NCBI GenBank assembly: GCA_035714745.1
Contig: DASTLR010000003.1
Span: 161-64,160, forward strand
DNA length: 64,000 bases
From: Minisyncoccota bacterium
GTDB lineage: Bacteria > Patescibacteriota > Minisyncoccia > Phycocordibacterales > UBA6065
Direction: 5' to 3'
Every line of letters starts with the position of its first letter. Position 1 is the stretch's first letter. Below are positions 28,731 through 55,522 of the stretch, in pieces. A program made the translations under genes and the position numbers. Below the pieces are notes generated by a model. It did no database searches. It was not told the DNA's origin and saw nothing but the letters and a program-made list of their open reading frames with translations.

Positions 28731-28749
28731 GATTTGCCTTGCTTTATTT

Positions 28750-30069
28750 TTACGGCGAGATTTTACGCCGGAAAATGCGTGGGAACGGAATGGCGTCGCG
28801 CACATGCGGGATGTTGAGCATCCAGCGGATCATGCGTTCGACCCCCATGCCGAAAGCCGCGTGAGGAACGCAGCCGAGTTGGTGGACGTCACGGACGAAT
28901 TCGAAGCGCGGATCACCATGCTTGCCCTTATCCTTGAGCCGCTCGTCGAGTTCGCGGAGTTGATGGATTTTCTCGGCGGTGCCGAGGAGCTCGCCGTAGC
29001 CATTGCTCGCGATCAGGTCGGCGACGCGAGTGATTCGCGTGTCGGCCGGATCGATGCAATACGGGAACGGTTCGATAGTCCGGGGTATCCCAGTGATCCA
29101 GAACGGGCGACCAGGAAAGAGCTTGGAGAGCAAGGTTTCCTCTTCGGAGCCGAGGCTCTTGCCAAACTCATGTTGCATGCCGAGCGACGAAAGGTGCTTG
29201 ACCGCCTCTTCGTAGCTGATGCGGGGATATGGAACGGACATGCCGTCGGTGCAGAGCGTCGTGCCGAGCACCTGGAGCTCTTCCGAGAGCTCCTTCTGGC
29301 ATTTCTTGGTGAGGAAACAGATGATGTCCTCAACCATCTTGATGATGCAGTCGAGGTCGCACCAAGCCACCTCGGCCTTGATATGCCAGTATTCCATGAG
29401 GTGCCGTTTGCTGCGGCCCTCTTCCCCGCGGAAGCTCGGTCCCATATTGTAGACGCGCTCGAAGGCGTGGACCGCCGCTTCGAGGTAGTATCCGACGCAT
29501 TGCGTCAAGAATACATCCTCGTCATGGACGGTCAGCTTCATGGCCGTGCCGTCTTCGTAGAGCGGCACCGGCGTGAGTATCGGCGCGTCGATCGATGTGA
29601 ACCGGTTGTCTCGGAACCACTGCCGCATGTGATGCATCAGGCTGTCCCGATATTTCAAGATGGCCATTACCTTCGGGTTGCGGAGGTAGATATGGCGGTT
29701 GGCGAGCAGATGGGGCGTCATGCCTTCTGCGAAGATGTCGAAGTCGGAGCGCGGGTGCGGATCGAATCCGCGGGTGACCCCGCCGACGAGCGTGATGTCA
29801 TGCGCGGCGATTTCGAGGCGGCCTTTAGGCGTCCTCGAAACGACTCCTTTGACGACGATGCCTGATTCGACAGGGATATCCCTGGCGATCTCAGACGCTC
29901 CGTTCGAGCCATGCTCGGCGGAGACGACGACTTGGATCTTGCCCGTGCTGTCGGACACATCCAAGAACGTGATGCGGCCCTGGTCCCGCTTGGAGGAGAC
30001 CCAGCCTGACAAGTCGACCTGGTCTCCGGGTTGAGCCCGGAGGAGGTCGGCTACGAATACAGTCTTCAT
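28750..30069 (-). CDS. asnS: Asparaginyl-tRNA synthetase
   Basis: Class II motifs are MGPSFRGEEGRSKRHLMEYWHIKAEVAW and GCVPHAAFGMGVERMIRW. An N-terminal OB fold is present. Length is 439 aa. Confidence 0.8.
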   Translation of the reverse strand: MKTVFVADLLRAQPGDQVDLSGWVSSKRDQGRITFLDVSDSTGKIQVVVSAEHGSNGASEIARDIPVESGIVVKGVVSRTPKGRLEIAAHDITLVGGVTRGFDPHPRSDFDIFAEGMTPHLLANRHIYLRNPKVMAILKYRDSLMHHMRQWFRDNRFTSIDAPILTPVPLYEDGTAMKLTVHDEDVFLTQCVGYYLEAAVHAFERVYNMGPSFRGEEGRSKRHLMEYWHIKAEVAWCDLDCIIKMVEDIICFLTKKCQKELSEELQVLGTTLCTDGMSVPYPRISYEEAVKHLSSLGMQHEFGKSLGSEEETLLSKLFPGRPFWITGIPRTIEPFPYCIDPADTRITRVADLIASNGYGELLGTAEKIHQLRELDERLKDKGKHGDPRFEFVRDVHQLGCVPHAAFGMGVERMIRWMLNIPHVRDAIPFPRIFRRKISP

Positions 30070-30176: not shown

Positions 30177-31236
30177 TTAGAATTCGATGGATATGGTTCG
30201 GGCGGCCGGGTCGATTCGCACCTTTCTACCATACGGTATGGGTATCTGAGGATGTGTGTGCCCAAAATCAAGATTTTGTATTACTGGCGCCTTTGGATTG
30301 TATCGACGGAATTCTGCGAGCACATGTTCCCGCTGTTCGCGCCTGTAAGCAGCTTTAGCAGATGACCCTTTCGGGTCCGAAAAGTTCCACGCTTTTGGAC
30401 GGCCCACAAGGAGGCCTTTGGCAGCTCCTAAGATTTTCTTTCTTCCGAGCTTCCTTAGTATCGAAGCGACTTTTCGAGCAGATGGCACTTCTTCTGAGGT
30501 CTCAATGAGCAGAACCGCGTCCTTGAATTGATCAAGTGTCGGCATATCATTTCCCGAATCAAGCATTGCATTGATTGACTCAAGACAACCACCCCATGTT
30601 ATTCCCTCCACTATCAAGTCTCCGTCCCAGAACCAACCCTCATTTGGTTCGAAACATCGCTCCTGCTTAAGCGACTCTGGATTACTCCAGTCGACGTCGA
30701 CATCAGAGTATACGCTACTCGACATGAGGTCCACCCGGCCCTTCCTGAAGAGCGCCTGATTGATAAAACGATCTGTGAACTTATCAGGTCCTTCCTTGTG
30801 GGCGAATTGGGTGAAGAGTGCCGCGCCGTAATACGAAGGCACGCCAAGGAGCCAGAGGAAACTCATGAAATGGGTATTGTCGCTGAAGCCAAAAAAAGGC
30901 TTAGGGTTTAATGCGAACGGTTTCCGAGGCAAGAGCTTCATATATGTTGCCTGATCATCGCCACCAAGAGTGGTCACTACCCCTTTGATTTCCGAGTCAG
31001 AGAAGGCTGCAACTAGATCATTGATACGCTCGTCGACTGACGCGCCGAGTTTTCCTGTTGAGGGATATTCTACGGGGATAAGCCCGAGCTTACGGATTTG
31101 CTTCAAGCCAAGCTCATATACATGAGGCCACTTCCCCGGCGCGGCAAATGAAGGTGATAATATTGCCACCTTGTCACCTCTTTGGAGTTTTCGGAGTCTC
31201 TTGAATCTCACAAGATAATCATACGATATAAACATA
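30177..31236 (-). CDS. LD-carboxypeptidase, peptidase family S66 (LdcA/MccF family), in a low-GC island
   Basis: GDKVAILSPSF marks the family's N-terminal conserved segment, and the nucleophile Ser is in GFSDNTHF. The ATG at 31236 (MFISYDYLV...) sits just after a perfect terminator. The longer track ORF to 31490 reads through that terminator. Confidence 0.8.
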
Positions 31237-31258
31237 AAAAGGGCGCCGTAAGGCGCCC
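31236..31258 (-). terminator. Rho-independent terminator after the amidohydrolase gene
   Basis: On the minus strand the sequence is GGGCGCC-UUAC-GGCGCCC followed by UUUUUAUGUUU. Confidence 0.75.
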
Positions 31259-31263
31259 ATCTC

Positions 31264-32298
31264 TCAAAACCCAAAAAAAGCTTCGGCGTTCTTGCGAAAG
31301 ATCCGTTGCTTTGCCTGGTCTCGCATCTCGAGAGGCAAACTCTCGATAGCATTCCGAAGAGCGGTAAGGCAGAGCCAATGGCTATGCTCAGCCCCTTTAG
31401 CCAAGTGTCCATAGACCTTGTGCTCTTCCGGATCGGTCCAATGATACTGATACGATGTGACGATCCGCTGGCCCTTTTCCGGGTGAACATAGGGCCGCGA
31501 CCTGATTAGGTTAAGAGGTTCGTCGCTCCCATACATGATACGGCTGATACCGAAAGATTCGATAGCGAGCTTCATAACCTCTTCCGACGGGTTAAGCGAT
31601 GTATCCATGCTCACGTTCGGAGCTTCAGCGATTCGGCGATAGGCTTCGGCTAAGCCAGATACAACGAATTTCGTCGAACCGAGGTGGGCGATTGATATTC
31701 GTAAGGCTGGGAAATCCGTAACGACCTTCATCAGATCATCCTGGCTTTCCACAATCATCCGGGGTAGATGAAGGATAATCGGGATACCAAATCGCTCAGC
31801 CGCCACAAGGATCTCTGGAGGAAAACATTGATAGATCTCTTTGGCTGTTGGCTCGACATACGAATAATACATTTTGAGTGCCGAAACACGTGGGTGGAGC
31901 AACATCCGAATCGTATACTCGGGATCCTCTGGCAGGCCAAATAAGGCGACCCGATCATTTGGCGGGCTATCAGAGAGCAGATACTGGTTCACTTTGCGAT
32001 GGTCTATGCCCCGGAAAGTTTTAGCGAATCGGAGCGACCTGATCGATTTACCAGGGTGAAAAACCTCTCTTACCTTTTCCGACTCCTCGATCGAAAAGCA
32101 AGGGAAAGTCGAGAGCATATGACGAAAGGTCTTTTCGCCCATATCTCGGATATGCTCAGGAAGTGTTGCATGGGCATGACAATCGACGATATCGCTTGGC
32201 AGCCAACGAGTGAATGACTCGATGGATGTTTTCTCTCGGTCAGAGAGCGCCATGGCATGCGCGAGATACGCATCTCTGTTTATAGTTGTTGCGAGCAT
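31264..32298 (-). CDS. Metal-dependent amidohydrolase (amidohydrolase-2/TIM-barrel hydrolase family)
   Basis: 344 aa. The N-terminal metal-binding motif is IVDCHAH, and later segments are ISIAHLG and MYGSDEP. GC is ~45%. Confidence 0.6.
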   Translation of the reverse strand: MLATTINRDAYLAHAMALSDREKTSIESFTRWLPSDIVDCHAHATLPEHIRDMGEKTFRHMLSTFPCFSIEESEKVREVFHPGKSIRSLRFAKTFRGIDHRKVNQYLLSDSPPNDRVALFGLPEDPEYTIRMLLHPRVSALKMYYSYVEPTAKEIYQCFPPEILVAAERFGIPIILHLPRMIVESQDDLMKVVTDFPALRISIAHLGSTKFVVSGLAEAYRRIAEAPNVSMDTSLNPSEEVMKLAIESFGISRIMYGSDEPLNLIRSRPYVHPEKGQRIVTSYQYHWTDPEEHKVYGHLAKGAEHSHWLCLTALRNAIESLPLEMRDQAKQRIFRKNAEAFFGF

Positions 32299-32370: not shown

Positions 32371-33768
32371 CTACGGCGTCAAACGCTTAACACCTCGATA
32401 AAGATACGTCACATCTCTCACGTTCGAGATGCCGAACACTTTCATTAGCATGCGTGTTGGGCCCGGAGCGAATCCTCCATGTGGGGGACAGCCGTACCTG
32501 AAGAAATCGATATAGGTCTTGAATGAAGCGAGGTTGAGACCTTGCTCCTCGATCTGTTTCGATAATCTCTCAACACGATGCTCCCTTTGGGCTCCGCTCG
32601 TTATCTCGACCCCATTCCATAGGAGGTCAAAGCTTTTGGTGATTGTCGGGTCCTTTTCATCTCGCATGCTGTAGAATGCTCTTACTTCAGTCGGGAAATC
32701 ATGGATAAATACGAATTCATGGCCGAATTTCTCTTTGACATACTCGCATATAGCCCGCTCTTCTTCTGGGCTCATGTCGCCGCCACGCTCATTCGGAATG
32801 CCTCTAGCGGCAAGTATTTTTTTTACTTCACGGATCGATATTCTTGGGAACGGAAGAGCGGGCACAGGCAAATCTCTGCCGTATATCTTAAGAATTTCGT
32901 CGCCGTGCTTTTTTTTGACGGCGGCTATCATCGCCGTCACCATTTTTTCTTCTTGATCCATTAGGTCATGATGTGACGATATATATGACATTTCGATATC
33001 ATACATAGTGAACTCGGTGTCATGTCGGGAAGTGAAAGAAGGATTCGCTCTGAATACAGGACCTACTTCGAAGACACGCTCGAATCCCGCCGCCATCGCC
33101 ATTTGCTTGTACAGCTGAGGAGATTGGGCGAGCTTGGCCGTCTCGTCGAAATATTTCACTTCGAACAGCTCGGCGCCTGACTCTGACGCAGTTGATATGA
33201 GCTTTGGCGAATGAATCTCTATGAAATCGTTTTCGATACAGTACGTTCTAAAGGCCTGCTCCATTGTCGTCCAGACCTTGAATATAAGAGCATTCTCAGG
33301 TTTACGGAGATCGATCCACCTCCAGTCAAGACGTATCTGCTGATCAGTTTCTTCGTTTCCCTTCTTTACGACTACGGGTATAGGCAGCTCTGGATCTGCG
33401 ACAGAGAGTATTTCGAGCCGCGTTATCTCTATCTCTACCCCTCCAGGGGCTTGATCGGCTTTTTTTGCCTTACCTGCGAGTGCGATGACGGATTCGAGCG
33501 AAAGCGTCTTTAATTTTTCGAACTCGGGATTGTCTTTAGTGGCGAGCGCTTGAACCGTGCCTGTTATATCGCGAAGCACTACGAAGATAATCTTGCTCTG
33601 TACTCGCAGGGCATGCACGAATCCCCTAACGACTATTTCTTCTCCCACATGGGCTGCGACTTCCTTGGCGTGGATCATATAATGATATTTGTATCGGAGA
33701 AATAAAAGACCCTCCGAACTCATAGGCTTGTAATGAATTCGCAGGGGCGATTTAGATCGCGGTGCCAC
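32371..33768 (-). CDS. Second aspartyl-tRNA synthetase paralog (archaeal type) encoded in low-GC DNA
   Basis: About 70% aa identity to the 27426..28730 protein across the core (for example HSPKLISTASESGAELFEVKYFDETAKLAQSPQLYKQMAMAAGFERVFEVGPVFRANPSFTSRHDTEFT). All three class II motifs are intact. GC is ~46% versus ~60% for the native copy. The start is uncertain (M1 at 33768, M16, or M31 at 33678). Confidence 0.85.
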   Translation of the reverse strand: MAPRSKSPLRIHYKPMSSEGLLFLRYKYHYMIHAKEVAAHVGEEIVVRGFVHALRVQSKIIFVVLRDITGTVQALATKDNPEFEKLKTLSLESVIALAGKAKKADQAPGGVEIEITRLEILSVADPELPIPVVVKKGNEETDQQIRLDWRWIDLRKPENALIFKVWTTMEQAFRTYCIENDFIEIHSPKLISTASESGAELFEVKYFDETAKLAQSPQLYKQMAMAAGFERVFEVGPVFRANPSFTSRHDTEFTMYDIEMSYISSHHDLMDQEEKMVTAMIAAVKKKHGDEILKIYGRDLPVPALPFPRISIREVKKILAARGIPNERGGDMSPEEERAICEYVKEKFGHEFVFIHDFPTEVRAFYSMRDEKDPTITKSFDLLWNGVEITSGAQREHRVERLSKQIEEQGLNLASFKTYIDFFRYGCPPHGGFAPGPTRMLMKVFGISNVRDVTYLYRGVKRLTP

Positions 33769-37185: not shown

Positions 37186-37842
37186 TTATTTGATCTCGAT
37201 CCAATTCCCTTCGCTGACGACCTCGACCTTTTCGTCTGCAACTTTGATGGCTGAAGCATCGTCGAGAGCGTACGTCTTTCGTCCGGTTCCCTCTACGGCT
37301 TTACGGATATTCTTCTCTCGCAACAGCGGGAACCATTTGGAATCGAGGTGAGGCAGCACATAAAAATCTACGAAACCAAGGCCCGGCATGTCTTCCTTTC
37401 GATCAAAGTCTTCTTCATAGACGATTTGAGATATCTTGAGCGACAGGTCGGGATTAGTGACCATGGTGCCCGCGCTGATGCCAGCATAGAGACGCGTCTC
37501 GAGCAATCGCGGCAATTCCGCGGCAAGGCCTGATTTATTCAACCATTCCATAAGGTGATAAGTATTGCCGCCGCCGACAAAGATCACGTCGGCCGCTTCC
37601 AATCGCGGCAGCCACTGCTTTTTCTCGAGCGCTGATATGTCTACGATATCGACAGACTTAAGGCCGAGCCTCTGTATCTGCGCCAGATTGTCGAGAAGCC
37701 ACCCTTTGTCGCCTGGCTCGACGTTCGCTGCCGTGGGTATGAAAGCAAGCGAAATCCGGCTCGCTTTCTTTCCTGCGAGCTCGAAAAAAGCCCCTTCTAT
37801 AGCCTTATTCGTTATTCCTGCCGATGTAAGAAGTAATTTCAT
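37186..37842 (-). CDS. Peptidase E (S51 family dipeptidase/cyanophycinase-like)
   Basis: The protein begins MKLLLTSAG and contains VGGGNT and the catalytic Ser region AGISAGT. Length is 218 aa. Confidence 0.75.
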   Translation of the reverse strand: MKLLLTSAGITNKAIEGAFFELAGKKASRISLAFIPTAANVEPGDKGWLLDNLAQIQRLGLKSVDIVDISALEKKQWLPRLEAADVIFVGGGNTYHLMEWLNKSGLAAELPRLLETRLYAGISAGTMVTNPDLSLKISQIVYEEDFDRKEDMPGLGFVDFYVLPHLDSKWFPLLREKNIRKAVEGTGRKTYALDDASAIKVADEKVEVVSEGNWIEIK

Positions 37843-39121
37843 TTAAGCGCATGGTCTCCTGCGTCCCCCTCTCCATGTCTTTGACCACGACCTTGCCTTC
37901 TTTGGCCTCGTTGGGGCCGTAGATGAGGGCGTACGGGATGCCCTTGTCGCTCGCGTAGCCGAGCTGCTTCTTCATGTCGCCCGGCTCGAAATAGAGGATG
38001 GCGTTCACCCCGGCCGCGCGCAGGTCGCTCGCGAGCTCAAGGTAGTCGTCGGTCAGGCTCTCGTCCAGGTTGACGATGAGCGCGCGAGCGGTAGAACGAG
38101 CAGGAGCGATCAGGCCGAGCTCCTCGAGAGCGGCATAAAGCCTGTCTAGGCCAATGCTGGCCCCTACTGCCGGCACCTGCCTGCCCGAGAACATGCCGAC
38201 GAGGCCGTCATAGCGGCCGCCCGAGAGCACGCTGCCGAAGGCGGGCAGAGCGGTCAGGTTCGTCTCGAAGATCAGTCCCGTGTAATAGTCTAGGCCGCGA
38301 GCGATGGAGAAGTCGATGACGAAGCGCGCTTCCGCCAGCTCGTACGCCATCTCGACGATAGCGACCAGTCTCTTCAGGGGCACTCTGACGCTCGGGAAGG
38401 CCTGGGCTACCTCTTCGAGCTCGGCCACGTTCTCTATCCCGTCGATGGACGTCTCGGCAAAAGCGGCGACTTGCTCGACCAGGGCCGGCTTGATGCCTGC
38501 CTTGGCAAGCTCCTCGGCCACACCCTCCTTGCCTATCTTGTCGATCTTGTCTACGGCGCGAATGGCCGCGACCTTCTCTTCAGCGCTCAAACCGAGCGAG
38601 TCATAGAACGCGCTGATGATCTCCCGCGAATTGACGCGCACCACGAAATCGGACGCCTTGACGCCCAGCTTCTGCAGGGTGCCGGCGGCCAGGGCCAGGA
38701 TCTCGGCATCGGCCAGGGGCGACGTCGAGCCGACGATGTCCGCGTCGCACTGGTAGAACTCGCGGAAGCGGCCCTTTTGGGTGTTCTCGGCGCGCCAGAC
38801 CGGCGAGACCTGGTAGCGCTTGAAGGGCTTCTTGAGGTCGCCGTTCATGGCCACTACGCGAGCCAGAGGGATGGTCAGGTCGTAGCGCAGGGCCACGTCG
38901 CGGTCGCCGTTGTCGCGGAAGCGGTACATGAGCTTGTCGCCCTCGTCGCCGTACTTGCCGGTGAGCACTTCCGCGTACTCCAAAGCCGGCGTCTCGAGCG
39001 GCTCGAAGCCGAACGTCCTGTACGACGACTTGATGGCCTCGATCATGCGCTCGCGAGCGATCTGCCGCTCCGGCAGGAAATCGCGGAAGCCCTTGAGGAT
39101 CTTTGGTTCTATCTGTGGCAT
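37805..39121 (-). CDS. hisS: Histidyl-tRNA synthetase (copy 1, ~60% GC)
   Basis: Contains KGFRDFLP, RYDLTIPLARVVA, FREFYQCDADIVG and GGRYDGLV, plus a C-terminal anticodon-binding domain. Length is 438 aa. Confidence 0.9.
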   Translation of the reverse strand: MPQIEPKILKGFRDFLPERQIARERMIEAIKSSYRTFGFEPLETPALEYAEVLTGKYGDEGDKLMYRFRDNGDRDVALRYDLTIPLARVVAMNGDLKKPFKRYQVSPVWRAENTQKGRFREFYQCDADIVGSTSPLADAEILALAAGTLQKLGVKASDFVVRVNSREIISAFYDSLGLSAEEKVAAIRAVDKIDKIGKEGVAEELAKAGIKPALVEQVAAFAETSIDGIENVAELEEVAQAFPSVRVPLKRLVAIVEMAYELAEARFVIDFSIARGLDYYTGLIFETNLTALPAFGSVLSGGRYDGLVGMFSGRQVPAVGASIGLDRLYAALEELGLIAPARSTARALIVNLDESLTDDYLELASDLRAAGVNAILYFEPGDMKKQLGYASDKGIPYALIYGPNEAKEGKVVVKDMERGTQETMRLNEITSYIGRNNE

Positions 39122-39232: not shown

Positions 39233-39733
39233 CTAAAGTATAGTTTTATTCTCCAGGATGTCAGATATCCTCTTCATGATATGGTCTTGTACTTCTCCCC
39301 AATCAAAGTATTCTTTGTAATCTTTTGGATTGATTAGTTTTATCTCGGTGATGTCTCCGTCAGGGTCGGCGATGAATGGTCCATATGGCTCAACGATGCA
39401 AAGAGTGCGGCTTTGATTAACCGTACGCCCCGGCATAAGAATATTTTGATAGCCAAGCGGTATCTGGCGAAGCACTCGCATGTTGGATTCTTCTTTAACT
39501 TCCCTCTCCGTCGCTTCGGCAAGCGATTCGCCTGCTTCTATCCTTCCTCCGATCGGTGTCCACCTCTCACGGCTCTTGTCATAGACAAGTACCATCTTGC
39601 CATTGCAGATGCAGACGGCGCCAATGCTCTCGAAGGGCAGATGTTTGACTTCATCGTATGATTCGATATCTCGGTATGTCACGTCGACTAGTCCTTCCGT
39701 ACGGCTTTGGATCTTAATCTTTATTTCCATCAC
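39233..39733 (-). CDS. NUDIX hydrolase
   Basis: The Nudix box is GGRIEAGESLAEATEREVKEESN. Length is 166 aa. GC is low. Confidence 0.8.
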   Translation of the reverse strand: MMEIKIKIQSRTEGLVDVTYRDIESYDEVKHLPFESIGAVCICNGKMVLVYDKSRERWTPIGGRIEAGESLAEATEREVKEESNMRVLRQIPLGYQNILMPGRTVNQSRTLCIVEPYGPFIADPDGDITEIKLINPKDYKEYFDWGEVQDHIMKRISDILENKTIL

Positions 39734-40611: not shown

Positions 40612-40636
40612 GCCCGGCACAGCGCCGGGCTTTTTT
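40612..40636 (+). terminator. Rho-independent terminator after the GNAT gene
   Basis: GCCCGGC-acagc-GCCGGGC followed by TTTTTT. Confidence 0.8.
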
Positions 40637-41111
40637 ATGCCGTAGCTGACATCCCGAGCATTCTCTCGAATTCCTTTCGATACTTCTCGAGAGTGTGCGC
40701 GAACCCCGTATGGAGCGGCTGGGGCAAAGCGTCGAGGGCGAACCAGCTGATCTCTGCCATTTTTTCAGGCTCGCAGATGCTGACGCGGGCAGGATCGACC
40801 CTTACAAAGAACGGCGCGGCGATCCAGTGCGTCATAACGCCGTTCTGCTCCCGAAAGATGTCATGCGCGGGCAGAGAGCCGATGATCTCTCCCTCGGCGC
40901 CGTATTCCTCTCTGACCTCCTGGAGCGCGTTCTCCTCGAGCGAGAGGTCGAATTCGAGCTTTCCCGAGCCTGGGTCCCAGCGCCCGTGCTCGTCGCGACA
41001 GTTCTCCGTCCTCTTGTGCATGAGGAGTCGTCCCTTCCCGTCTGTGCAGTAGAAGGGCGTCGTGACGCCCACGAAATCGATGCCGATCTTCATAGTGTTT
41101 CTCTTATGCAC
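40635..41111 (-). CDS. NUDIX hydrolase
   Basis: The Nudix box is GSGKLEFDLSLEENALQEVREEYG. Length is 158 aa. Confidence 0.75.
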   Translation of the reverse strand: MHKRNTMKIGIDFVGVTTPFYCTDGKGRLLMHKRTENCRDEHGRWDPGSGKLEFDLSLEENALQEVREEYGAEGEIIGSLPAHDIFREQNGVMTHWIAAPFFVRVDPARVSICEPEKMAEISWFALDALPQPLHTGFAHTLEKYRKEFERMLGMSATA

Positions 41112-41179
41112 TGTATTGTACCAAAATAAAAAACCACTTATCCCGAAGGAAGAGTGGTGAGAAAGCGCGGGGGCGCGAT

Positions 41180-41251
41180 GGGACTCGAACCCACAACCGT
41201 AGGTTCCACAAACCTGCGCTCTACCATTGAGCTACGCGCCCACACTGCAAA
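41180..41251 (-). tRNA. tRNA-His (anticodon GTG). Canonical cloverleaf with C73 discriminator, but the genomic -1 position is T, not G.
   Basis: The sequence is GGGCGCGTAGCTCAATGGTAGAGCGCAGGTTTGTGGAACCTACGGTTGTGGGTTCGAGTCCCATCGCGCCCC. The acceptor stem is 7/7. The D stem is GCTC/GAGC. The anticodon loop is TTGTGGA. The T loop is TTCGAGT. CCA is not encoded. The 5' flank is ...GTGT. Confidence 0.85.
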
Positions 41252-41274: not shown

Positions 41275-42624
41275 TTATTGCGCCGAGGCTGTCAATATCC
41301 GGTTCGTCACAAAGACGATATTCTCGGCTGCCACCTCCGACTGCTTCTTCAGCCTCGTATCTTTTACCTGGGCTAACCCTTTGGCCATTTCGTTGCCGCC
41401 GGCGATTACGATCACGGGGATTCCACGACGAAGCGCATAAGCGAGCTGGGCTTTCAGGTTAGTTTCCTTTCCTAGATAGAGCTCGGCTCGGATCATACCT
41501 TTACGAAGGATACCCGTGATCGACTGGCAGTAGCTCTCGGCATCGGGATCGAAGTTGAGGACGATGGCTTGAACTGTCGTTCCCTCCTTCTTTACCAGGC
41601 CGAGCGATTCCATGGCCGCAAACAGGCGGTCGACTCCGACCGAAGCACCCGTAGCAGGAATGCTCTGGCTTCCGAAGCGCGACACGAGGTCGTCGTAACG
41701 TCCTCCCGAAAAAACGCTGCCGATCGAGGGAAGGTCGAGCAGCGTCGTCTCGAAGACAGGCCCCGTGTAGTAACCGAGGCCGCGCGCAACCGAGAGATCG
41801 ACCTTCCATGCCGACCTCGGCACTCCGAGGGAATCGACCCCTTTCACGATGGCGCGGAGCTCGTCGATGCCTTCGAGCGCGACAACCGATTCTTTCATCA
41901 GGTCAGCCAATCCGTCGAGCGTCGCGTCGATGGTGTCGCCCTGGGTGCCCAAGAATGTGCTCAGTTTGGCGATCTGAGCCTTGGTAAGCTCTTTTTGAGC
42001 GAGCTCGTCCGATACCCCCTGCCAGCCTATCTTGTCGATCTTGTCGAGGATGCGCAGGATGTCAGGATTGAGGGTGCCGTCATACTCAACGAATGCAGGC
42101 AGGCCGTTCAGGACCTTCCTGTTGTTGACGCGGATCTGGAAGCGTTCCAGCCCCAAAGCCTTCATCGTCTCATACATGAGCGAGACGATCTCTGCGTCGG
42201 CGCTAGTCCGGGCCGATCCGACGATATCCGCGTCGAATTGCACGAACTCGCGGAACCTGCCCGCTTGCGCCTTTTCGCCGCGCCAGACCTTTCCCGTGTG
42301 ATAGCGCTTGAACGGCAAGTCGAGCTTGTCCGAATAGAGCGATACCACGCGAGCGAGCGGCACGGTCAGATCGAAGCGGAGAGCCAGGCCCTCGTTGTTC
42401 CCCTTCAGCCCCGTCTTAAAGATCTGCATGCCGAAGTTGGAATCGCCACCTGTCAAGATAGCCTCCCTTTCGATACCGGGGGTATCGATCGGGGCAAATC
42501 CGAACCGCTCGAAAACGGCCCTGATCGTGTCGAACATCTTCTGCCGGGGGATCATATCCTCGGGCAGGTAGTCTTTAAAGCCTGAAGCGAGTTCAGGGCT
42601 GATCCGTATGTCAGAGTTCATCAT
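41275..42624 (-). CDS. Histidyl-tRNA synthetase paralog (copy 2)
   Basis: Contains SGFKDYLP, RFDLTVPLARVV, FREFVQFDADIVG and GGRYDDLV, plus a C-terminal anticodon-binding-like domain (VIVIAGGNE). About 50-55% identity to copy 1. Length is 449 aa. Confidence 0.85.
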   Translation of the reverse strand: MMNSDIRISPELASGFKDYLPEDMIPRQKMFDTIRAVFERFGFAPIDTPGIEREAILTGGDSNFGMQIFKTGLKGNNEGLALRFDLTVPLARVVSLYSDKLDLPFKRYHTGKVWRGEKAQAGRFREFVQFDADIVGSARTSADAEIVSLMYETMKALGLERFQIRVNNRKVLNGLPAFVEYDGTLNPDILRILDKIDKIGWQGVSDELAQKELTKAQIAKLSTFLGTQGDTIDATLDGLADLMKESVVALEGIDELRAIVKGVDSLGVPRSAWKVDLSVARGLGYYTGPVFETTLLDLPSIGSVFSGGRYDDLVSRFGSQSIPATGASVGVDRLFAAMESLGLVKKEGTTVQAIVLNFDPDAESYCQSITGILRKGMIRAELYLGKETNLKAQLAYALRRGIPVIVIAGGNEMAKGLAQVKDTRLKKQSEVAAENIVFVTNRILTASAQ

Positions 42625-48517: not shown

Positions 48518-49045
48518 TTAGGCTCTCTTATCTTTCAGCGCAGCGATCTTGTCTTCCAGATACGGTTGAAAATATCCCTTATATTTCTCATGCAATCGCG
48601 GCAACTTCCAGTCATCATAGCTCAAGGTTCCCCTGCACGTCTTTTGTCCACAGAAACACTTTACAGGATAAGGAGGTATCTTCGCGGATAGGACCATGGC
48701 GTAATCGAAGCAGATCTCCTCTCCTGCAACGATATCTCGCATTGCCACAAGGAAAATCTGGCCTTTGAAGCCCACGTTCGGCTCACAGCTGTGATTAAAG
48801 AAATCTACTGGCTGGATTTGACTCTCATCCATTATCCCCATGACAAATTCATCGCTTATCTGGTGAGCGTAATCATTCATTCCGGGAGGAAGCTCCTGTT
48901 CTTCCTGTACTGTAAAGATATAGCCCCCGAAGACCGCTACCTTCTCTCCTTTTTTTATCGGTTCGCCCGTTTTGACACCTTTGCCTAATTCACCCTTATC
49001 TATGACCTGCAATTTAGGATTGATCCAAGAAAATATTCTAGACAT
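48518..49045 (-). CDS. SET-domain protein (putative protein-lysine methyltransferase)
   Basis: Contains NHSCEPN and EICFDY, with a post-SET Cys cluster CFCGQKTCRG. Length is 175 aa. GC is low. Confidence 0.8.
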   Translation of the reverse strand: MSRIFSWINPKLQVIDKGELGKGVKTGEPIKKGEKVAVFGGYIFTVQEEQELPPGMNDYAHQISDEFVMGIMDESQIQPVDFFNHSCEPNVGFKGQIFLVAMRDIVAGEEICFDYAMVLSAKIPPYPVKCFCGQKTCRGTLSYDDWKLPRLHEKYKGYFQPYLEDKIAALKDKRA

Positions 49046-49047
49046 AT

Positions 49048-49962
49048 CTATATATTACTCTTATTTTTTACGAAACCTATCGTGTTATGTGGATGACACA
49101 TCCAAAAAGAATCTCCCTCTATTTCTGTCGGCTCAAGAGCCACGATCAATGGTCTATATCCTGATTCTTTCATCACTTTGATGAATGCTGGCAAAAAGAC
49201 GTCTCTTGTGAATTCCTTTTCTTTCACATCGAGCATGAAGTTCTCAAAAAGAATGCCATGCTGAAGAAACAGTCTCAGAAAATGCACATAATAATCTTTG
49301 GCATTACCGCCACACTTCGAAAACCAACCCGAGGCGTCGTAAAAAGAAGTGTTATCGATATGAGAATATGTCTGGGTCAAGAATTCACGATGGAAATCTC
49401 CGAGTTTTTGACCCCAAACTGTGGTTATCTCTGAAAGCCTTTTTCCTTTGAACCTGTTGAAATCGACTATATTAACTCTGTCTATCTTTTGGCCGCCCTT
49501 TTTTCCAGTCCCCGCATAAAAGGACATCTTGCAAAGATTATATTTCCACTCGTTATTGTCAGTAAATTTATCTTCGAGATATTCGAAGAAAAGTGGCTTG
49601 AATGCATCACTTAGAACATCGGCGACGCTTATGAAGCGCCTTACCTCGTAGTTTGGCGTCGCGATCTGCCGAAACATGACTGCACAGCTTTTATCTTCAA
49701 AAGCATCCGGTACTCCAGCAACGAGGGATCTTTCGATATAGGAAAGCAGACCTCGATTCCTTTTTCTCTTCTCAAGCTCATTAACAGCCTCGAGAAGCGG
49801 CGTGTAGACGAACTCACTAAAAGCCTCTCGGTCACTTATCAGTCTATCTATGAGCTCTTTCGTCTCATCATCGACGTTTATCTTCAGGAGATCCGTTGTC
49901 TCGTACGTAGGCATAGGAGATTTAGATTGAGGCTGAGCAGACGTCTCCCGCAGATTCGTCAC
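49048..49962 (-). CDS. Hypothetical protein (304 aa), cotranscribed with the SET-domain gene
   Basis: Clean ORF in low-GC DNA, 2 nt upstream of the SET gene. No recognisable motif. Confidence 0.55.
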   Translation of the reverse strand: MTNLRETSAQPQSKSPMPTYETTDLLKINVDDETKELIDRLISDREAFSEFVYTPLLEAVNELEKRKRNRGLLSYIERSLVAGVPDAFEDKSCAVMFRQIATPNYEVRRFISVADVLSDAFKPLFFEYLEDKFTDNNEWKYNLCKMSFYAGTGKKGGQKIDRVNIVDFNRFKGKRLSEITTVWGQKLGDFHREFLTQTYSHIDNTSFYDASGWFSKCGGNAKDYYVHFLRLFLQHGILFENFMLDVKEKEFTRDVFLPAFIKVMKESGYRPLIVALEPTEIEGDSFWMCHPHNTIGFVKNKSNI

Positions 49963-50254
49963 AAGCGACTACTGCACATGATATTGAGCCGCTTTTGCAT
50001 TCAGATAAGCAAGAATTATCTTTACAGCCAGAAAAATCTGCGGCCTTTATCTTAAAGACCTGATATTCCGATAGATTGTTCGGGGGGCAACCGTCTGGTC
50101 CTTGGCAGTCACGGACATAGCATATCTGACTTGTTGGATCGCAAGGGGCTTCCACTAAAAAATCATAGCTCTTTTTATCGTAAAAAATATAGTAACTAGC
50201 CCCTAGCGCAGAGACGAACATCAGGGACAGGATAGTAAACAGCGCCTTATTCAT
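49922..50254 (-). CDS. Small secreted cysteine-rich protein
   Basis: The signal peptide is MNKALFTILSLMFVSALGA. Twelve Cys occur in ~90 mature residues. Confidence 0.5.
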   Translation of the reverse strand: MNKALFTILSLMFVSALGASYYIFYDKKSYDFLVEAPCDPTSQICYVRDCQGPDGCPPNNLSEYQVFKIKAADFSGCKDNSCLSECKSGSISCAVVACDESAGDVCSASI

Positions 50255-51007: not shown

Positions 51008-51613
51008 ATGAAGAAGACACTGTATCTGATCCCAGGCTTTGGAGAGACCTCCTCTGATCCGGCATACGTTCGCATCTCCAGGGTAGCTAAAGAAGCTGGA
51101 TACCACGTAGTTCCATTCGATCCTACATGGGATAGAAGCGCCGCCACGCGATGGGTCGCCGACTTCTCCCGAATCGTCGAGAGGGACGGCGCCAAAAACG
51201 CGAGCGTCATTGGTTTCTCCTTTGGCGCCTATATCGCCGTGCTTGCGGCAAAGAAGTACGATTTCAACAGGCTCTATCTGTGCTCTCTTTCGCCATACTT
51301 CAAGGACGACCTCCCACATATCCCCGATGCTGCCTGGAAGGCGCTTGGATCGAGAAGGAAAGCTGATTTTTCCAGCCATTCTTTCCCTGAAGATATCGGC
51401 GCGAGCGCGGTCTTCTTTGTCGGCGAACATGAGATTCGCTATGAGCTACAGGCGGTCGAAAAGCGATATCGGGCTTGGAAGGGAGAGAAAAAATACATAG
51501 TCGTGCCTGATGCGGACCATGACCTTGAATCGGGCGAGTACTTGGACTCGCTATTATCGGAAATAAAAGTTCTTCATGAAGCAGCCGTTGCGGAAAAAGA
51601 CATTAGCTTCTAA
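51008..51613 (+). CDS. Alpha/beta-fold hydrolase (esterase/lipase type)
   Basis: The nucleophile elbow is GFSFGA. An Asp/His region follows (VVPDADHD). Start is taken at MKKTLYLIPGFGE. Confidence 0.65.
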   Translation: MKKTLYLIPGFGETSSDPAYVRISRVAKEAGYHVVPFDPTWDRSAATRWVADFSRIVERDGAKNASVIGFSFGAYIAVLAAKKYDFNRLYLCSLSPYFKDDLPHIPDAAWKALGSRRKADFSSHSFPEDIGASAVFFVGEHEIRYELQAVEKRYRAWKGEKKYIVVPDADHDLESGEYLDSLLSEIKVLHEAAVAEKDISF

Positions 51614-52742
51614 GAACTTCATGTCTGATCTCAGACAATATATCAGAGAGTTTTTTTGCATTCTTCTCCCATGCAACATGTTTGGCAATAAATTCTTTAG
51701 CACGTGCCCCTAGCTTCATACGCTTTTCATCATCGCTAATTAAATCCAAAACTGCTTTTTTCAGATCAAGAATATCGGCGGGCTTTATCAGAATCCCATT
51801 TTCCCCATGTATGATCACATCCTCATTACCATTATTAATAGTCGTGATCACCGGCTTTCCTGCGGACATGGATTCAAGAACCGTGCCCATCAATCCATCC
51901 CCCTGATGAGAAGGAAAGACGCAAATGTCTGCCATAGAGAAATAATCATACGGATTACTTACCAAGCCAATCACTGATACCTTTTCCGTAATACCAAAAT
52001 CTCTGATTTTTTGCTCGATATGTTGTTTGAGTTCGCCGTCTCCGAGTATCCATAAATGGACATTGTCCTGTTCCGCTAGAATTTCTTTAAAGGCATGAAT
52101 AAGAGTAATGATTCCCTTTCTCTCAATCAATCTTCCAGCAAAGACAAGATTGCATCCGGCCTTTGGCGGTATCGTATTTTGAATTACCAGAGGATAATCA
52201 ACACCTGTGCCTAGTAAATACCTTAGGTGGATATCCTTTATATACGCAGACCATTTTTCAGAAACTACAGAACTGATCGAAATGGTAGCGCTGCAAAATC
52301 TAATGAATGACCTATACAAAGGGATGTGCTCGGAAGAATATCCAGATATATACAACACATTTGGTATACCTATCGGCTTAAAAAGGCAATCTGGTAGATA
52401 GTACGACAAAATAATGTCAGGCCTGTTTAGGATCAACGCCTCATGAATTTTCTCATCAAAAGCGAGTGATTCGATGGTCCACCTCACATGATCAATGTCG
52501 GGTTTTTGTTCGTAGAGCCCAAGAATCGAGTTGCTTATATCAAACCTAAGTATATTTACATTCTCCAACGCTTTTTCAGTAAATTCTCGAAACAAAAAAC
52601 TCTCATTGAGCCTAGCCGATATGGAAGTATATAAATCTACGACGTGCCCCATCCTGGAAAGATACTCCGCATGCTTTAGGGAGACCTTCTCGGACCCTGC
52701 TATATGATAGGATGTCCTAGGCTGAACAATCGCGATTCTCAT
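51603..52742 (-). CDS. Glycosyltransferase family 4 (GT-B, RfaG-like)
   Basis: The C-terminal GT4 core is CVFPSHQGDGLMGTVLESMSAGKPVI (EX7E-type). Length is 379 aa. Confidence 0.8.
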   Translation of the reverse strand: MRIAIVQPRTSYHIAGSEKVSLKHAEYLSRMGHVVDLYTSISARLNESFLFREFTEKALENVNILRFDISNSILGLYEQKPDIDHVRWTIESLAFDEKIHEALILNRPDIILSYYLPDCLFKPIGIPNVLYISGYSSEHIPLYRSFIRFCSATISISSVVSEKWSAYIKDIHLRYLLGTGVDYPLVIQNTIPPKAGCNLVFAGRLIERKGIITLIHAFKEILAEQDNVHLWILGDGELKQHIEQKIRDFGITEKVSVIGLVSNPYDYFSMADICVFPSHQGDGLMGTVLESMSAGKPVITTINNGNEDVIIHGENGILIKPADILDLKKAVLDLISDDEKRMKLGARAKEFIAKHVAWEKNAKKLSDILSEIRHEVLRS

Positions 52743-53263
52743 AGCTCGATTTTCTCTTCTATGTAGTCGCAGTACATATCATATTGGATCTTGCCACTGG
52801 TGTACTTATTAATAAATCCGATATATTCAGGCAGATCCTTATAATATACAAAAATTCTTTGTTCTGTTTCGTTATCTTTAAGCGGTAAAAAATGATCAAG
52901 CGATCCAATTTTACACACGAATCTCACCTGTAGATTATGCTTCTGGATCTCCTCCTCAGCGCTAGGATTAATGACCTCCAATGACCCAAGCAGCTTAATG
53001 TCCTCAGGTATAAATTGGGCCTCCTCCATAAATTCCCTACGCAAAGTCTCAAGCGCGGTCTCTCCCTCCTCAGCCCCGCCTCCTGGAGGTGTAAATCTTT
53101 CGTCACCTTTTTCTCTAACAAGAGCCACTAGATTATCCTTAGTGTTACAAAAACCGTACACCTGCTGAACTGGAATATCCTTGGGAATGATTCCCGGATG
53201 CCAGATATAAGTGATCGTATAATTGCCCTTATCCTTTATTTCAGTGAGTTTATATTTTTCCAT
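52739..53263 (-). CDS. NUDIX hydrolase
   Basis: The Nudix box is PGGGAEEGETALETLRREFMEEAQ. Length is 174 aa. It overlaps the GT4 start by 4 nt. Confidence 0.8.
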   Translation of the reverse strand: MEKYKLTEIKDKGNYTITYIWHPGIIPKDIPVQQVYGFCNTKDNLVALVREKGDERFTPPGGGAEEGETALETLRREFMEEAQFIPEDIKLLGSLEVINPSAEEEIQKHNLQVRFVCKIGSLDHFLPLKDNETEQRIFVYYKDLPEYIGFINKYTSGKIQYDMYCDYIEEKIEL

Positions 53264-53309
53264 AGTATTCGAAAAATTATAGCAAAAAGGACCCCGCTTT
53301 CACAGGATC

Positions 53310-54176
53310 CTAAACGATGCTCTCAAGGTATCTGATTTCCTTTTCGAGAATCGGAATGATTCGTCCCCGGTCTGGTTTCCTTAGGACAACTCCGCATGCG
53401 TGATCAACCGAAACTCTTGAACCCCTCTTCTCAAGAAATCTCACAAAATTTCCGGGCTGAAAATCATCAGCGCTAGTTATTTGCAAGGCCGCACTAATAA
53501 TTCTTTGTATTCTTGAGCAAGACGCCTGATGTCCGACGATAACCTGTAAGTCATCGCCTAACGATTCAAAAACCTCTCTTAGCATTCGATAGAGCCGTAA
53601 GGAGAAATCCCCCTGATGCTCTCCAAATTTCGTAAACCAGCCTATAAGTTCTGGGAACTCCGCTTTCCCGGAGCTATCGATGAGCGGGTCTCCAAAGCGA
53701 TAGAGCAATTCGCACGCATCAAGCTTTTTTTGCCACGCATTCCATGCGTCAACCAGGGGCCTATACCCCATACCTACGACATGATCCTTGATTATGAAAT
53801 CGCCTTGGTATATCTCTCTTACGCCAGAGGTTTCCATAATCTCTATCGGCATATCTATAGCAAATAGCTCTTCTGCTAGGATTGAGGCTGTTTGAATGGC
53901 CCTAAGCCGATTGCTATGCCGCAAGATAATTCGTTTAGTATTATTGCTTCCACAAAACTTGATCAACTGCTTACTTAGAGTTTTGATATCAGACTTAGTC
54001 TCTTCGATAAGAGGTTGATTTAAGTCCTGTGAAAGAATTGGGACGTCTACGCCGTGCCTTATTAAGACCATGAGGCTACCAGGGGTAGAACTCTGAATGT
54101 TTGACCTTTCGATGAGTCTCATGCAAAGACCCTCCTTTCTGCCGGATATAGTACAATAGATATTGAAAACTATCAA
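53310..54176 (-). CDS. Histidine phosphatase superfamily (phosphoglycerate-mutase-like) protein
   Basis: The RHG motif is LIRHG. The start is uncertain (possibly MRLIERS at ~54122). Confidence 0.6.
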   Translation of the reverse strand: MIVFNIYCTISGRKEGLCMRLIERSNIQSSTPGSLMVLIRHGVDVPILSQDLNQPLIEETKSDIKTLSKQLIKFCGSNNTKRIILRHSNRLRAIQTASILAEELFAIDMPIEIMETSGVREIYQGDFIIKDHVVGMGYRPLVDAWNAWQKKLDACELLYRFGDPLIDSSGKAEFPELIGWFTKFGEHQGDFSLRLYRMLREVFESLGDDLQVIVGHQASCSRIQRIISAALQITSADDFQPGNFVRFLEKRGSRVSVDHACGVVLRKPDRGRIIPILEKEIRYLESIV

Positions 54177-54214
54177 GAAATTTGGTACCGTTTCTATATA
54201 TTAATCTGCTGATT

Positions 54215-55522
54215 ATGCTGACAAAACCCATCATCTCAATCGTGCTCGGAAGCTACAACAGAAGACCCTTCTTGAAAAAAGCCATCCGCACCATTAGAGA
54301 AAACGGGATAACCGCTCCTTATGAGATAGTCGTCATAGACGGAGGCTCGTCTGACGGCAGCATCAGATACCTTTGTTCCCAAAAGGATATCATCACAATC
54401 GTCCAGCATAATAATCGCTATGCGAATGACAAAAAAAGCTGGGGTTATTATATGAACATTGCGCTTCGCTCATGTCATGGCACATACATCGTGATGATAT
54501 CGGATGATTGTCTCTTAATCCCCGGTTCGATCATGAATGCTTTTAATCTTTTTGAAAAAGAATTGGCAGATGGAAATAGAATCGGCGGCATAGCCTTTTA
54601 TTGGAGAAATCTGCCGTATGAAAAGATGTACTACGTCAGACAGACGCTGGGACACAAGCTCTCCACAAATCATGGCATGTACTTAAGAAGCGCATTGGAG
54701 GAGGTCGGATACTGCGAGGAAGATAAGTATCCATTTTATTATGGCGATGGAGATTTATCGCTTAAGCTATGGAAATCCGGATATTCAATCATTGACTGCA
54801 AAACTGCCCTTGTCGAACATTTCCATTTTGCCACCATGTCAATCCGCAAAAGGAACAACGAAGCAAAGGAGCTCCATAAAAAGGTATATATGGATTCTTG
54901 GAAGGGTAGTTTTTATGACAAAGATATTGATAACCAAAGCGGGAAAATATTTCTCAACTATTCTGACCCACGCAAAACCTATAAATATTTTAAAAGAACT
55001 CTGAGATATTATATCGGCATCCTGCAATCAAGATTTGGCTCTTACTATGGCTACGAGCGTAATCGCCCAAATAGACTTCCAAGTGTCGAAATGCTTGCTA
55101 ATCCATTGAATATAAAATATCTCCTTTCAAAGTTCAGGGTCGCTCCAGAACAATTGTGTATTTTTGCGCTCATTCGAAAAGATGGGAAAATTTTGATGGG
55201 ACTCAGGGAATATGTTAAAGGAAGGCCTGTTTGGACTTATCCAGGAGGGCGTGGACGGGTAAATGAAACCCTGATCGAAACCTTAAAAAGAGAAGTGGCG
55301 GAAGAAATCGGCGTCTTCGATATTACTCTTGTGAGGGTAGTCGGTCAAAAAGACGGCGTAAAGATCGGAGATAGGGTGTATTTCGTGGAGTGCGAGATTT
55401 CTAGTGACCCAAGACTTATAGAACCTGATAAGTTCAAAGAGTGGAAATGGTTTCCGATTGACGAATTGCCGAATAACATTATTGATAGTGAAGATATTAA
55501 GTTTTTAAAACGATTAAGGTAA
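54215..55522 (+). CDS. Fusion protein: N-terminal GT2 glycosyltransferase domain plus C-terminal NUDIX hydrolase domain
   Basis: The GT2 motifs are ISIVLGSYNRRPFL and VVIDGGSSDGS (DxD-like). The C-terminal Nudix box is YPGGRGRVNETLIETLKREVAEEIGV. The track ORF starts at 54182. Confidence 0.8.
   Translation: MLTKPIISIVLGSYNRRPFLKKAIRTIRENGITAPYEIVVIDGGSSDGSIRYLCSQKDIITIVQHNNRYANDKKSWGYYMNIALRSCHGTYIVMISDDCLLIPGSIMNAFNLFEKELADGNRIGGIAFYWRNLPYEKMYYVRQTLGHKLSTNHGMYLRSALEEVGYCEEDKYPFYYGDGDLSLKLWKSGYSIIDCKTALVEHFHFATMSIRKRNNEAKELHKKVYMDSWKGSFYDKDIDNQSGKIFLNYSDPRKTYKYFKRTLRYYIGILQSRFGSYYGYERNRPNRLPSVEMLANPLNIKYLLSKFRVAPEQLCIFALIRKDGKILMGLREYVKGRPVWTYPGGRGRVNETLIETLKREVAEEIGVFDITLVRVVGQKDGVKIGDRVYFVECEISSDPRLIEPDKFKEWKWFPIDELPNNIIDSEDIKFLKRLR

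Follow-up and report, generated by a model that had tools for sequence, protein, structure and literature searches.

The window analyzed here is a stretch of 64,000 nucleotides from a Minisyncoccota bacterium (GenBank assembly GCA_035714745.1, contig DASTLR010000003.1), and its positions 51603-55522 hold a cassette of four genes that encode a GT4 glycosyltransferase, a stand-alone Nudix protein (NudixC), a divergent histidine phosphatase (HisPhos), and a GT2 glycosyltransferase fused to a C-terminal Nudix domain (GT2-Nudix). Sequence comparison indicates that the cassette is conserved and lineage-restricted in Paceibacterota, which are uncultivated, ultra-small bacteria of the phylum Minisyncoccota within the candidate phyla radiation (CPR), and that the GT2-Nudix fusion is genuine and under purifying selection. 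It is a new domain architecture and gene cassette made from familiar parts and restricted to one CPR subclade. As for its role, we tentatively propose a self-contained cytoplasmic glycoside pathway in which the Nudix units clear the nucleoside diphosphate (NDP) by-product or surplus nucleotide, a reading that we consider possible and still short of probable.

The cassette and its GT2-Nudix fusion

All four genes that an initial annotation of the DNA had named in this interval were recovered. Three of them lie on the minus strand: GT4 (51603-52742; 379 amino acids (aa); GT-B, retaining-type; PF00534 E=7e-35 and PF13692 E=3e-33), NudixC (52739-53263; 174 aa; PF00293 E=5e-13), and HisPhos (53310-54122; 270 aa; branch 1, phosphoglycerate mutase (PGM)-like). 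The open reading frame (ORF) of HisPhos reaches 54176, the likely start is at 54122, and the resulting 270-aa form is the one found in NCBI (P0121) and in all orthologues. Beyond an intergenic region of 92 bp (54123-54214), the GT2-Nudix gene is transcribed divergently from the plus strand. Its GT2 catalytic domain (GT-A; residues 1-250; 54215-54964; PF00535 E=2e-11) is followed by a helical linker that is conserved among the fusions (residues ~251-310; 54965-55144) and by a MutT/NUDX1-like Nudix domain (residues ~311-435 and the stop codon; 55145-55522; PF00293 E=2e-15). The overlap of stop and start codons described in the annotation is present as well, with the NudixC stop and the GT4 start sharing the letters ATGA, by which NudixC is translationally coupled to GT4. 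Promoter-like matches in the 92-bp divergent region were not commoner than in shuffled sequence, and a terminator scan likewise gave no excess of matches over shuffled sequence.

The block is also low in guanine-plus-cytosine (GC) content, as had been stated. The cassette genes have GC fractions of 0.40-0.445, compared with a window mean of 0.568 and with 0.59-0.62 for the adjacent ABC genes. In every genome examined, the cassette lies ~8-12 GC points under its flanks, and its flanking synteny in the window, with DnaK-DnaJ-ABC genes on one side and a further Nudix gene (NudixA) and a histidyl-tRNA synthetase (HisRS) gene on the other, is that of the related locus L009. Since low GC recurs in all genomes examined and the synteny is conserved, it is a property of the cassette and not proof of recent transfer. 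We set aside a mobile-element origin of the block on the same synteny and on the lack of a tRNA or integrase gene at the cassette borders in the window. No transmembrane segments were predicted in any of the four proteins, all of which are predicted to be soluble. The name glycosylation cluster, as first given to this unit, is an overstatement for two glycosyltransferases (GTs) in a four-gene soluble cassette; genes for a flippase, a polymerase, a priming phosphoglycosyl transferase, or a ligase do not accompany it.

The ORF of the fusion (54182-55522, plus strand) is uninterrupted over 446 aa. Its likely start is the ATG at 54215, and the resulting 435-aa form is 100% identical to NCBI protein P0001 from a 'Candidatus Paceibacterota' metagenome-assembled genome (MAG). 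On the 446-aa ORF, Pfam places PF00535 at residues 19-143 and PF00293 at residues 327-444. The fused architecture noted from the window recurs in ~28 protein clusters (90% level) from independent assemblies in NCBI, ENA, JGI, and Logan, and these are 54-79% identical. Mean pairwise identity among the 28 fusions is 0.74 in the GT2 domain, 0.66 in the linker, and 0.65 in the Nudix domain. The Nudix box of the window's fusion reads GRGRVNETLIETLKREVAEEIGV (55247-55315), and the pattern GX5EX7REUXEEXGU, with the catalytic glutamates of REx2EE, is matched exactly in 30 of 30 Nudix-bearing sequences. We give a practically negligible chance to the fusion being an artefact of a missed stop or frameshift, or to its Nudix domain being in decay. 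A frameshift within the Nudix part of the fusion in locus L015 and a decayed cassette in locus L016 would suit that explanation, but the intact ORF, the ~28 clusters from four independent data sources, and the perfect boxes speak against it, and assembly artefact was rejected on these grounds. Neither of the two findings that the annotation had named as refuting its reading, a fused box without its catalytic Glu residues and a missed stop codon, was observed.

When AlphaFold2 (AF2) was run on the whole 435-aa chain with a 59-sequence alignment, it returned one compact two-domain model (pLDDT 92.5, pTM 0.90) with linker helices at residues 257-307. These scores suggest that the modeled domains sit in a fixed relative arrangement and are not beads on a string. 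The architecture was also searched with the linker and Nudix domain as the query against 1.84 billion representative proteins. This search found a fused representative, P0002, which was the only representative to match through the linker, and the fusion family therefore amounts to one cluster at 50% identity. In the literature searched, we found no paper describing a glycosyltransferase-Nudix fusion, and the public annotation of the protein is automatic only (e.g., 'NUDIX domain-containing protein').

Distribution and variants across Paceibacterota

The four genes occur in identical order and orientation with differing flanks in L001, L002/L003, and L011, all of them Paceibacterota/Minisyncoccia MAGs. 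The same order amid different flanks suggests that the arrangement is more than chance. A distribution scan by pattern search over one genome per GTDB species, with tblastn confirmation, yielded 12 loci with NudixC. The fusion lies beside HisPhos-Nudix-GT4 in nine of them, one of which has a frameshift in its Nudix part and another of which is truncated by a contig end; two others (L022 and L023, the latter being L009) have the HisPhos-Nudix-GT4 trio only, and the last (L016) is a decayed remnant. In this remnant (L016:5331-6668), the fused Nudix and NudixC are intact, the GT2 is present as fragments and GT4 as its first 49 residues, and the phosphatase is gone.

Within the trio, NudixC and GT4 also abut in other loci, and in L009 the HisPhos, Nudix, and GT4 genes all overlap. 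NudixC is the most conserved protein of the cassette, with identities of up to 89%, while GT4 identities are 53-74% across all cassette loci. The 48 homologues of NudixC are all lineage-restricted and all stand-alone, and no 'Rosetta stone' fusion of GT4 to Nudix was seen among them. The HisPhos family comprises 63 homologues, again all within this lineage.

The partner of the trio is more variable. In L006/L007 (Zambryskibacteria-type), the neighbor of the trio is a GT2 of 412 aa, with 51% identity over the GT2 part. The C-terminal extension of this protein has no Nudix box, but hhalign detects a weak relationship (E=2.2e-4, probability 45%) with the fused Nudix, in the C-terminal half of that domain. 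The divergent partner in L009 is a GT2-like gene that is not homologous to the GT2 of the fusion, which suggests that the partner GT2 can be replaced. Between the ABC gene and this alternative GT2, L009 also encodes a 201-aa protein and two NTP_transf_3 nucleotidyltransferases (L009:3848-5995), and these may supply activated donors for the cassette. From these comparisons, the invariant core is HisPhos-Nudix-GT4, with a replaceable GT2 that comes with or without an active Nudix. Because sister lineages do without the box or without the whole domain, the fused Nudix looks like an accessory enhancer and not an essential step, and the GT4-coupled Nudix looks like the core unit.

Family affinities and candidate reactions

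In the pathway that we propose, the cassette would build a small glycoside or decorate a soluble or inner-leaflet acceptor. GT4 would glycosylate a phosphorylated acceptor, HisPhos would strip the phosphate from the GT4 product, and GT2 would attach a second sugar, with both Nudix units working on the nucleotide side of the transfer reactions. The fused Nudix would hydrolyze NDP set free by the transfer, or nucleoside di/triphosphate in surplus, to nucleoside monophosphate (NMP) and inorganic phosphate, thereby relieving product inhibition of the GTs and returning NMP to a salvage-dependent cell. Leloir glycosyltransferases, the type to which both cassette GTs are assigned, are strongly inhibited by their NDP product, and the addition of a phosphatase in vitro relieves this inhibition. 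The proposal of a two-step synthesis through a phospho-intermediate is made by analogy, from a soluble GT beside a dedicated phosphatase without export genes. Such pathways include sucrose-phosphate synthase/phosphatase, trehalose-phosphate, glucosyl-3-phosphoglycerate synthase/phosphatase, and mannosylglucosylglycerate; here, the second GT could add a second sugar. GpgP, the mycobacterial phosphatase of the glucosyl-3-phosphoglycerate pathway, is a histidine phosphatase and belongs to the same superfamily as that of the cassette. The systems also differ, in that the cassette GT4 reaches none of the family models of these pathways, the cassette phosphatase is a lineage-specific divergent branch, and the known pathways are without Nudix components.

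Judged from sequence, the cassette proteins belong to the Nudix, GT2, and GT4 superfamilies, probably also to the histidine phosphatase superfamily, and to none of the specific functional families tested. The GT2 domain scored 44.8 bits with PF00535 (cut-off 23.3), and its residues D42 and S96-D97-D98, a DXD-type motif, are invariant among relatives. Its top Foldseek matches were 6p61, SpsA (1qg8), K4CP (2z86), and WrtF, with E ~1e-11 to 1e-12 for SpsA, K4CP, and 6p61, and the modeled domain has a generic GT-A fold. Stand-alone GT2 homologues of ~288 aa, which are ~50% identical, are found in many phyla inside large multi-GT polysaccharide clusters. GT4 scored 120.5 bits with PF00534 and 115.4 bits with PF13692, both above cut-off. 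It reached no equivalog-level model in NCBIfam, where a partial match to TIGR02472 (4e-9) was far under cut-off, and its best PDB sequence matches were all generic (the GT4 domain of Cps3D, TarM, SPS Tll1590, and BshA-like proteins). A defense or conflict system was considered after a weak match to PF20706 'GT4-conflict' (E=5.5e-4, below cut-off) and was dismissed. A PADLOC scan gave no system-specific match; there was a generic Nudix resemblance to candidate PDC-S07, and GT4 and HisPhos matched nothing.

The HisPhos of the window scored 21.3 bits with PF00300, just below the cut-off of 21.7, and several of its orthologues bear a precomputed PF00300 match. The catalytic motif is retained across 24 relatives, with R22, H23, and R74 invariant and G24 and H198 nearly invariant. 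While phmmer of the single sequence against the PDB gave zero matches, a search with the family profile gave PGM-type structures (3eoz, 4.5e-6; Shb17/YKR043C, 2e-4; PhoE, 0.013), so that the profile is nearest to sugar-phosphate and PGM-type phosphatases, Shb17 included. A HisPhos homologue with 51% identity occurs without GT4 or NudixC in L010 (4633-9459), beside a Nudix-like fragment. Its neighbors there are serine-recombinase (resolvase), ArdC-like, and TraG-like genes, which suggests a mobile-element context.

A different role for the phosphatase would be to follow a Nudix step. Either a GT would work on a substrate that carries a nucleotide or the Nudix would open the sequence, and Nudix and phosphatase would then remove NMP and the remaining phosphate in turn (NDP-X to X-P to X), freeing a glycoside or making an acceptor. 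We regard this as improbable. The order of Nudix and then phosphatase is known from tunicamycin maturation and several cofactor pathways, and mycobacterial MutT1, in which a Nudix and a histidine phosphatase form one protein, illustrates that such modules can act as a unit on nucleotides. The MutT1 modules are fused and serve nucleotide sanitation, whereas those of the cassette are adjacent operon genes with GT4, and the HisPhos profile matched PDB 5gg5, of mycobacterial MutT1, at an insignificant E=0.96. Removal of a nucleotide handle would agree with the tight HisPhos-Nudix-GT4 operon being the invariant core, down to the overlap of all three genes in L009, and with the structural resemblance of NudixC to CDP-Chase. 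It would leave unexplained the second Nudix on the GT2, which is dispensable in sister lineages, and there is no direct evidence of a nucleotide-linked acceptor.

We assigned the Nudix units to the Nudix hydrolase superfamily by similarity and motif, from which Mg2+-dependent pyrophosphohydrolase activity is predicted. With PF00293 (cut-off 21.1 bits), the fusion scored 57.5 and NudixC 49.8, and the two Nudix units encoded elsewhere in the window, NudixA and NudixB, scored 38.6 and 46.8. The fused Nudix is a minimal domain of ~125 aa. Its profile matched AtNUDX1 (1.8e-10), 4dyw from Burkholderia (1e-9), 4kyx from Rickettsia (3.7e-9), and MutT (2.5e-8) in the PDB, and phmmer returned the same set, with NUDT15 and NudG among the relatives. 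On similarity, the fused domain is thus a MutT/NUDT1/NUDX1-like minimal Nudix, nearest to enzymes of the AtNUDX1, MutT, NUDT15, and NudG type, whose substrates are nucleoside di/triphosphates and further diphosphates of small size. Like these enzymes, it has the canonical box and the small size; the enzymes themselves are free-standing and act in house-cleaning or as prenyl-diphosphate hydrolases. We know of no MutT/NUDX1-group enzyme that forms the C-terminal domain of a glycosyltransferase, and none appeared in the literature searched.

NudixC differs somewhat in its box, which follows GX5EX7REUXEE but has Q in place of the last G in every member. Its AF2 model (pLDDT 96.6) was closest in Foldseek to RppH of B. 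subtilis (BsRppH; TM 0.68/0.74), followed by CDP-Chase, UDP-X diphosphatase, E. coli RppH, and NudC, all at E ~1e-7. The top matches of NudixC in a phmmer search of the PDB were designer PPR repeat proteins with many sub-threshold repeats, and we judged them spurious.

The initial annotation had likened the Nudix units to GDP-mannose or other NDP-sugar hydrolases, and this analogy was not supported. Against NCBIfam at E<=0.01, neither the fused Nudix nor NudixC matched a model of GDP-mannose mannosyl hydrolase (GDPMH), NudK, or stand-alone NudF/AspP/ADP-ribose pyrophosphatase. Their matches were weak (RppH, MutT, NudG, and YtkD), and the sole ADP-ribose-related ones were to the Nudix half of bifunctional NadM-type models (E 5.5e-4 to 3.8e-3, far under cut-offs). 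We therefore rejected membership in the GDPMH family (Gmm/WcaH), whose Nudix motif is atypical where those of the cassette are canonical, and in the NudF/AspP or NudK families. The fused domain also lacks a Pro ~16 residues past the box, which we take to be an ADP-ribose pyrophosphatase marker and use as a lead only; as a single marker, Pro is present 16 residues past the box in five of six NudixC sequences. EvaA-type NDP-sugar 2,3-dehydratases are double Nudix-fold proteins of ~470 aa (PMC8987622), and they were discarded as candidates because the cassette units are single domains of 125-174 aa that match PF00293, wrong in both size and motif.

A role for the Nudix units in donor control or editing is, in our estimation, unlikely, though it is the alternative to which we give most weight. 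In this scheme, they would split NDP-sugar donors into NMP and sugar-1-phosphate as a brake or proofreader on both GTs, a role that has been proposed for GDPMH in colanic-acid clusters and for AspP in glycogen control. The sugar phosphate might afterwards lose its phosphate through the histidine phosphatase. A Nudix that is catalytically intact by motif does stand beside each GT, the two nucleotidyltransferases of the L009 block would make NDP-sugar, and the NudixC model also resembles CDP-Chase, the UDP-X diphosphatase 4hfq, and a Bdellovibrio NDP-sugar hydrolase. The Pro past the box in five of six NudixC sequences is a lead in the same direction. Nucleotide-sugar-cleaving Nudix enzymes are moreover well documented (PMC7729866). 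Among them, Gmm/WcaH/NudD of colanic-acid and O-antigen clusters resembles the present case as a Nudix among GTs that is presumed to act on the nucleotide-sugar economy (PMC7729866). However, Gmm is stand-alone, has an atypical motif, and releases GDP and mannose, whereas here canonical boxes without a family-model match occur in a four-gene soluble CPR cassette, with one unit covalently fused to the GT2. AspP/NudF in glycogen control offers the same concept of a Nudix that tunes GT flux through a nucleotide-linked substrate, but AspP is a domain-swapped dimer of ~210 aa from the ADP-ribose pyrophosphatase family, is not linked to a GT, and has no family match here. The missing GDPMH, NudK, NudF, and AspP matches count against donor control, as does the fused MutT-type domain itself, which has NUDX1 and MutT as its best PDB matches and does not have the additional domain that ADP-sugar hydrolases typically carry at the N terminus. 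An enzyme that destroys the donor would also serve no purpose when fused to one that consumes it, except under tight regulation. Since the fused domain is MutT/NUDX1-like, its most likely reaction would be hydrolysis of NDP (or surplus nucleotide) to NMP. With one Nudix per GT and no signature of an NDP-sugar hydrolase, we favor action on by-product or surplus nucleotide; of the two reactions that the annotation had suggested, a MutT-like domain would sooner be expected to attack the NDP product than the donor.

The match to AtNUDX1 raises another option, which we hold to be very improbable. The fused Nudix could turn polyprenyl diphosphate into the monophosphate as part of lipid-carrier supply, providing or recycling the lipid phosphate that bears a growing glycan, with GT2 acting on a lipid-linked acceptor. 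AtNUDX1 is the best PDB profile match (E=1.8e-10) over nearly the full length, the rose geranyl-diphosphate phosphohydrolase 6ypb is matched too, and plant NUDX1 dephosphorylates geranyl diphosphate in the same manner. On the GT2 side, Foldseek matched WrtF, which has a lipid-linked oligosaccharide acceptor, and a DPMS-like mannosyltransferase, and the non-CPR homologues belong to large polysaccharide clusters of the kind usual for lipid-linked assembly. Yet MutT and other NTPases score similarly in the same match list, the proteins have no membrane-anchoring segments, the cassette is without a priming transferase, flippase, or ligase, and HisPhos and the second Nudix stay unexplained. A slimmer chance still goes to the fused domain being a polyprenyl-diphosphate phosphohydrolase of the cytoplasm, from which the GT2 of the same chain would receive lipid-monophosphate carrier or an acceptor linked to lipid. 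If this were true, a soluble enzyme of the Nudix type would offer one answer to an old question, namely how cells dephosphorylate new undecaprenyl diphosphate at the cytoplasmic face of the membrane.

Several observations weigh against the NDP-clearing glycoside pathway. Turning NDP into NMP is energetically costly, and bacteria ordinarily use a kinase to recycle NDP. It is just as possible that the histidine phosphatase follows a Nudix step instead of GT4. The top structures for NudixC span several substrate classes, so that the Nudix substrate is not readable from sequence. Lastly, the small Nudix family to which the fused unit belongs is unusually fusion-prone, and the fusion may carry little pathway information. 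The closest relatives of the fused Nudix among the top matches are stand-alone MutT-like proteins of 130-150 aa, and other relatives are joined to TsaD-family (PF00814), RpiB, MOSC, AbiU2-HEPN, DUF1653, or tandem Nudix domains. Among the metagenomic relatives, P0301, P0235, P0239, and P0347 carry fusions to RpiB, a TsaD-family (PF00814) segment, AbiU2 HEPN, and MOSC. So many unrelated partners make the fusion alone weaker evidence for metabolic coupling.

These relatives, together with BsRppH, an RNA pyrophosphohydrolase, as the best structure and YtkD as the best NCBIfam match of NudixC, and with the loss of the Nudix box from the GT2 tail in a sister lineage, could also point to ordinary MutT- or RppH-like house-cleaning enzymes that became fused or co-transcribed in a compact CPR genome without any link to glycosylation. 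We think that such an incidental fusion has a low probability. The pairing is doubled, with one Nudix per GT, and is stable in relatives down to ~54% identity; NudixC is found in the cassette context only, as its most conserved gene; and the conserved linker and the rigid two-domain model of high confidence speak for an integrated enzyme. If the Nudix units were ordinary house-cleaning enzymes, the finding would shrink to a lineage-specific gene arrangement.

Genomic surroundings and implications

The initial annotation counted four Nudix domains in 16 kb, and the count is correct. The two genes outside the cassette, NudixA (39233-39733, minus strand; PF00293 E=1.3e-9) and NudixB (40635-41111, minus strand; PF00293 E=3.8e-12), were confirmed, the span is 16.3 kb, and neither a six-frame Nudix-box regular expression nor Pfam scans of most other large ORFs revealed a further Nudix in the window. 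The description of the region as saturated with Nudix domains is apt as regards the clustering, which is real, and is partly a matter of history, as the four domains are not independent events: the cassette pair is one conserved unit and NudixA is an old syntenic neighbor. NudixA, which has a canonical Nudix box, represents another Nudix family that is conserved in Paceibacterota. In L002/L020, 35 bp separate its orthologue from the fusion. In L009/L023 (73% identity), the distance to GT4 is 1.4 kb and the orthologue stands beside HisRS as in the window; L009 and the window also have the DnaK-DnaJ-ABC side in common. By these comparisons, the cassette and NudixA are old neighbors. In the window, they are separated by ~12 kb of other genes, among them those for a GNAT protein, NudixB, tRNA-His, a second HisRS, HAD and AstE-like proteins, a nucleoside hydrolase, a histidine kinase, and a SET-domain protein. 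The box of NudixB, GKLEFDLSLEENALQEVREEYGA, is degenerate, with L for the expected E and Q for the expected R, and falls outside the Nudix-box pattern; none of the other loci showed a NudixB orthologue next to the cassette.

NudixB lies beside a tRNA-His gene (41169-41241, minus strand) and a HisRS gene. The window holds two divergent HisRS paralogues (37805-39121 and 41275-42624, both on the minus strand) that are 72% and 42% identical to the single HisRS of L009, and the pair brackets NudixA, the GNAT acetyltransferase, NudixB, and tRNA-His. Small CPR genomes do not usually have two copies of HisRS next to the cognate tRNA. Closer to the cassette, the same low-GC stretch encodes a SET-domain (lysine methyltransferase-like) protein (48518-49045, minus strand; PF00856 E=3e-14). 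A 304-aa protein (49048-49962, minus strand) and an overlapping Cys-rich protein of 110 aa with a hydrophobic N terminus (49922-50254, minus strand) follow, neither with a Pfam match. In L002/L020, the pair is found again at 49% identity, ~2 kb away from the cassette, with which it may be loosely associated.

Elsewhere in the window, a protein of 1488 aa (154-4620, plus strand) combines LVIVD beta-propeller repeats with a Peptidase_S74 (endosialidase chaperone) domain and is likely to be a large protein of the cell surface. Three class II tRNA synthetase genes of the Asp/Asn/Lys type lie within 6.5 kb on the minus strand (27426-28805, 28750-30069, and 32371-33768), the third of them in a lower-GC stretch. 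ARAGORN reported a 95-nt 'tRNA-???' with a two-base anticodon at 31191-31285 (minus strand), at the junction of the overlapping ORFs 30177-31490 and 31264-32298, which is probably a false positive.

If the fused Nudix does clear NDP as proposed, these cells would have solved the by-product problem by gene fusion, as enzymologists do with added phosphatases, and a GT with its own nucleotide pyrophosphatase, beside a second GT that is translationally coupled to another, could give compact, self-clearing glycosylation catalysts. The cassette would be among the few recognizable self-contained biosynthetic modules in Paceibacterota, a group with minimal metabolism and no cultured representatives, and learning whether it makes an osmolyte, the head group of a glycolipid, or a decoration of the surface would tell something concrete about CPR physiology.

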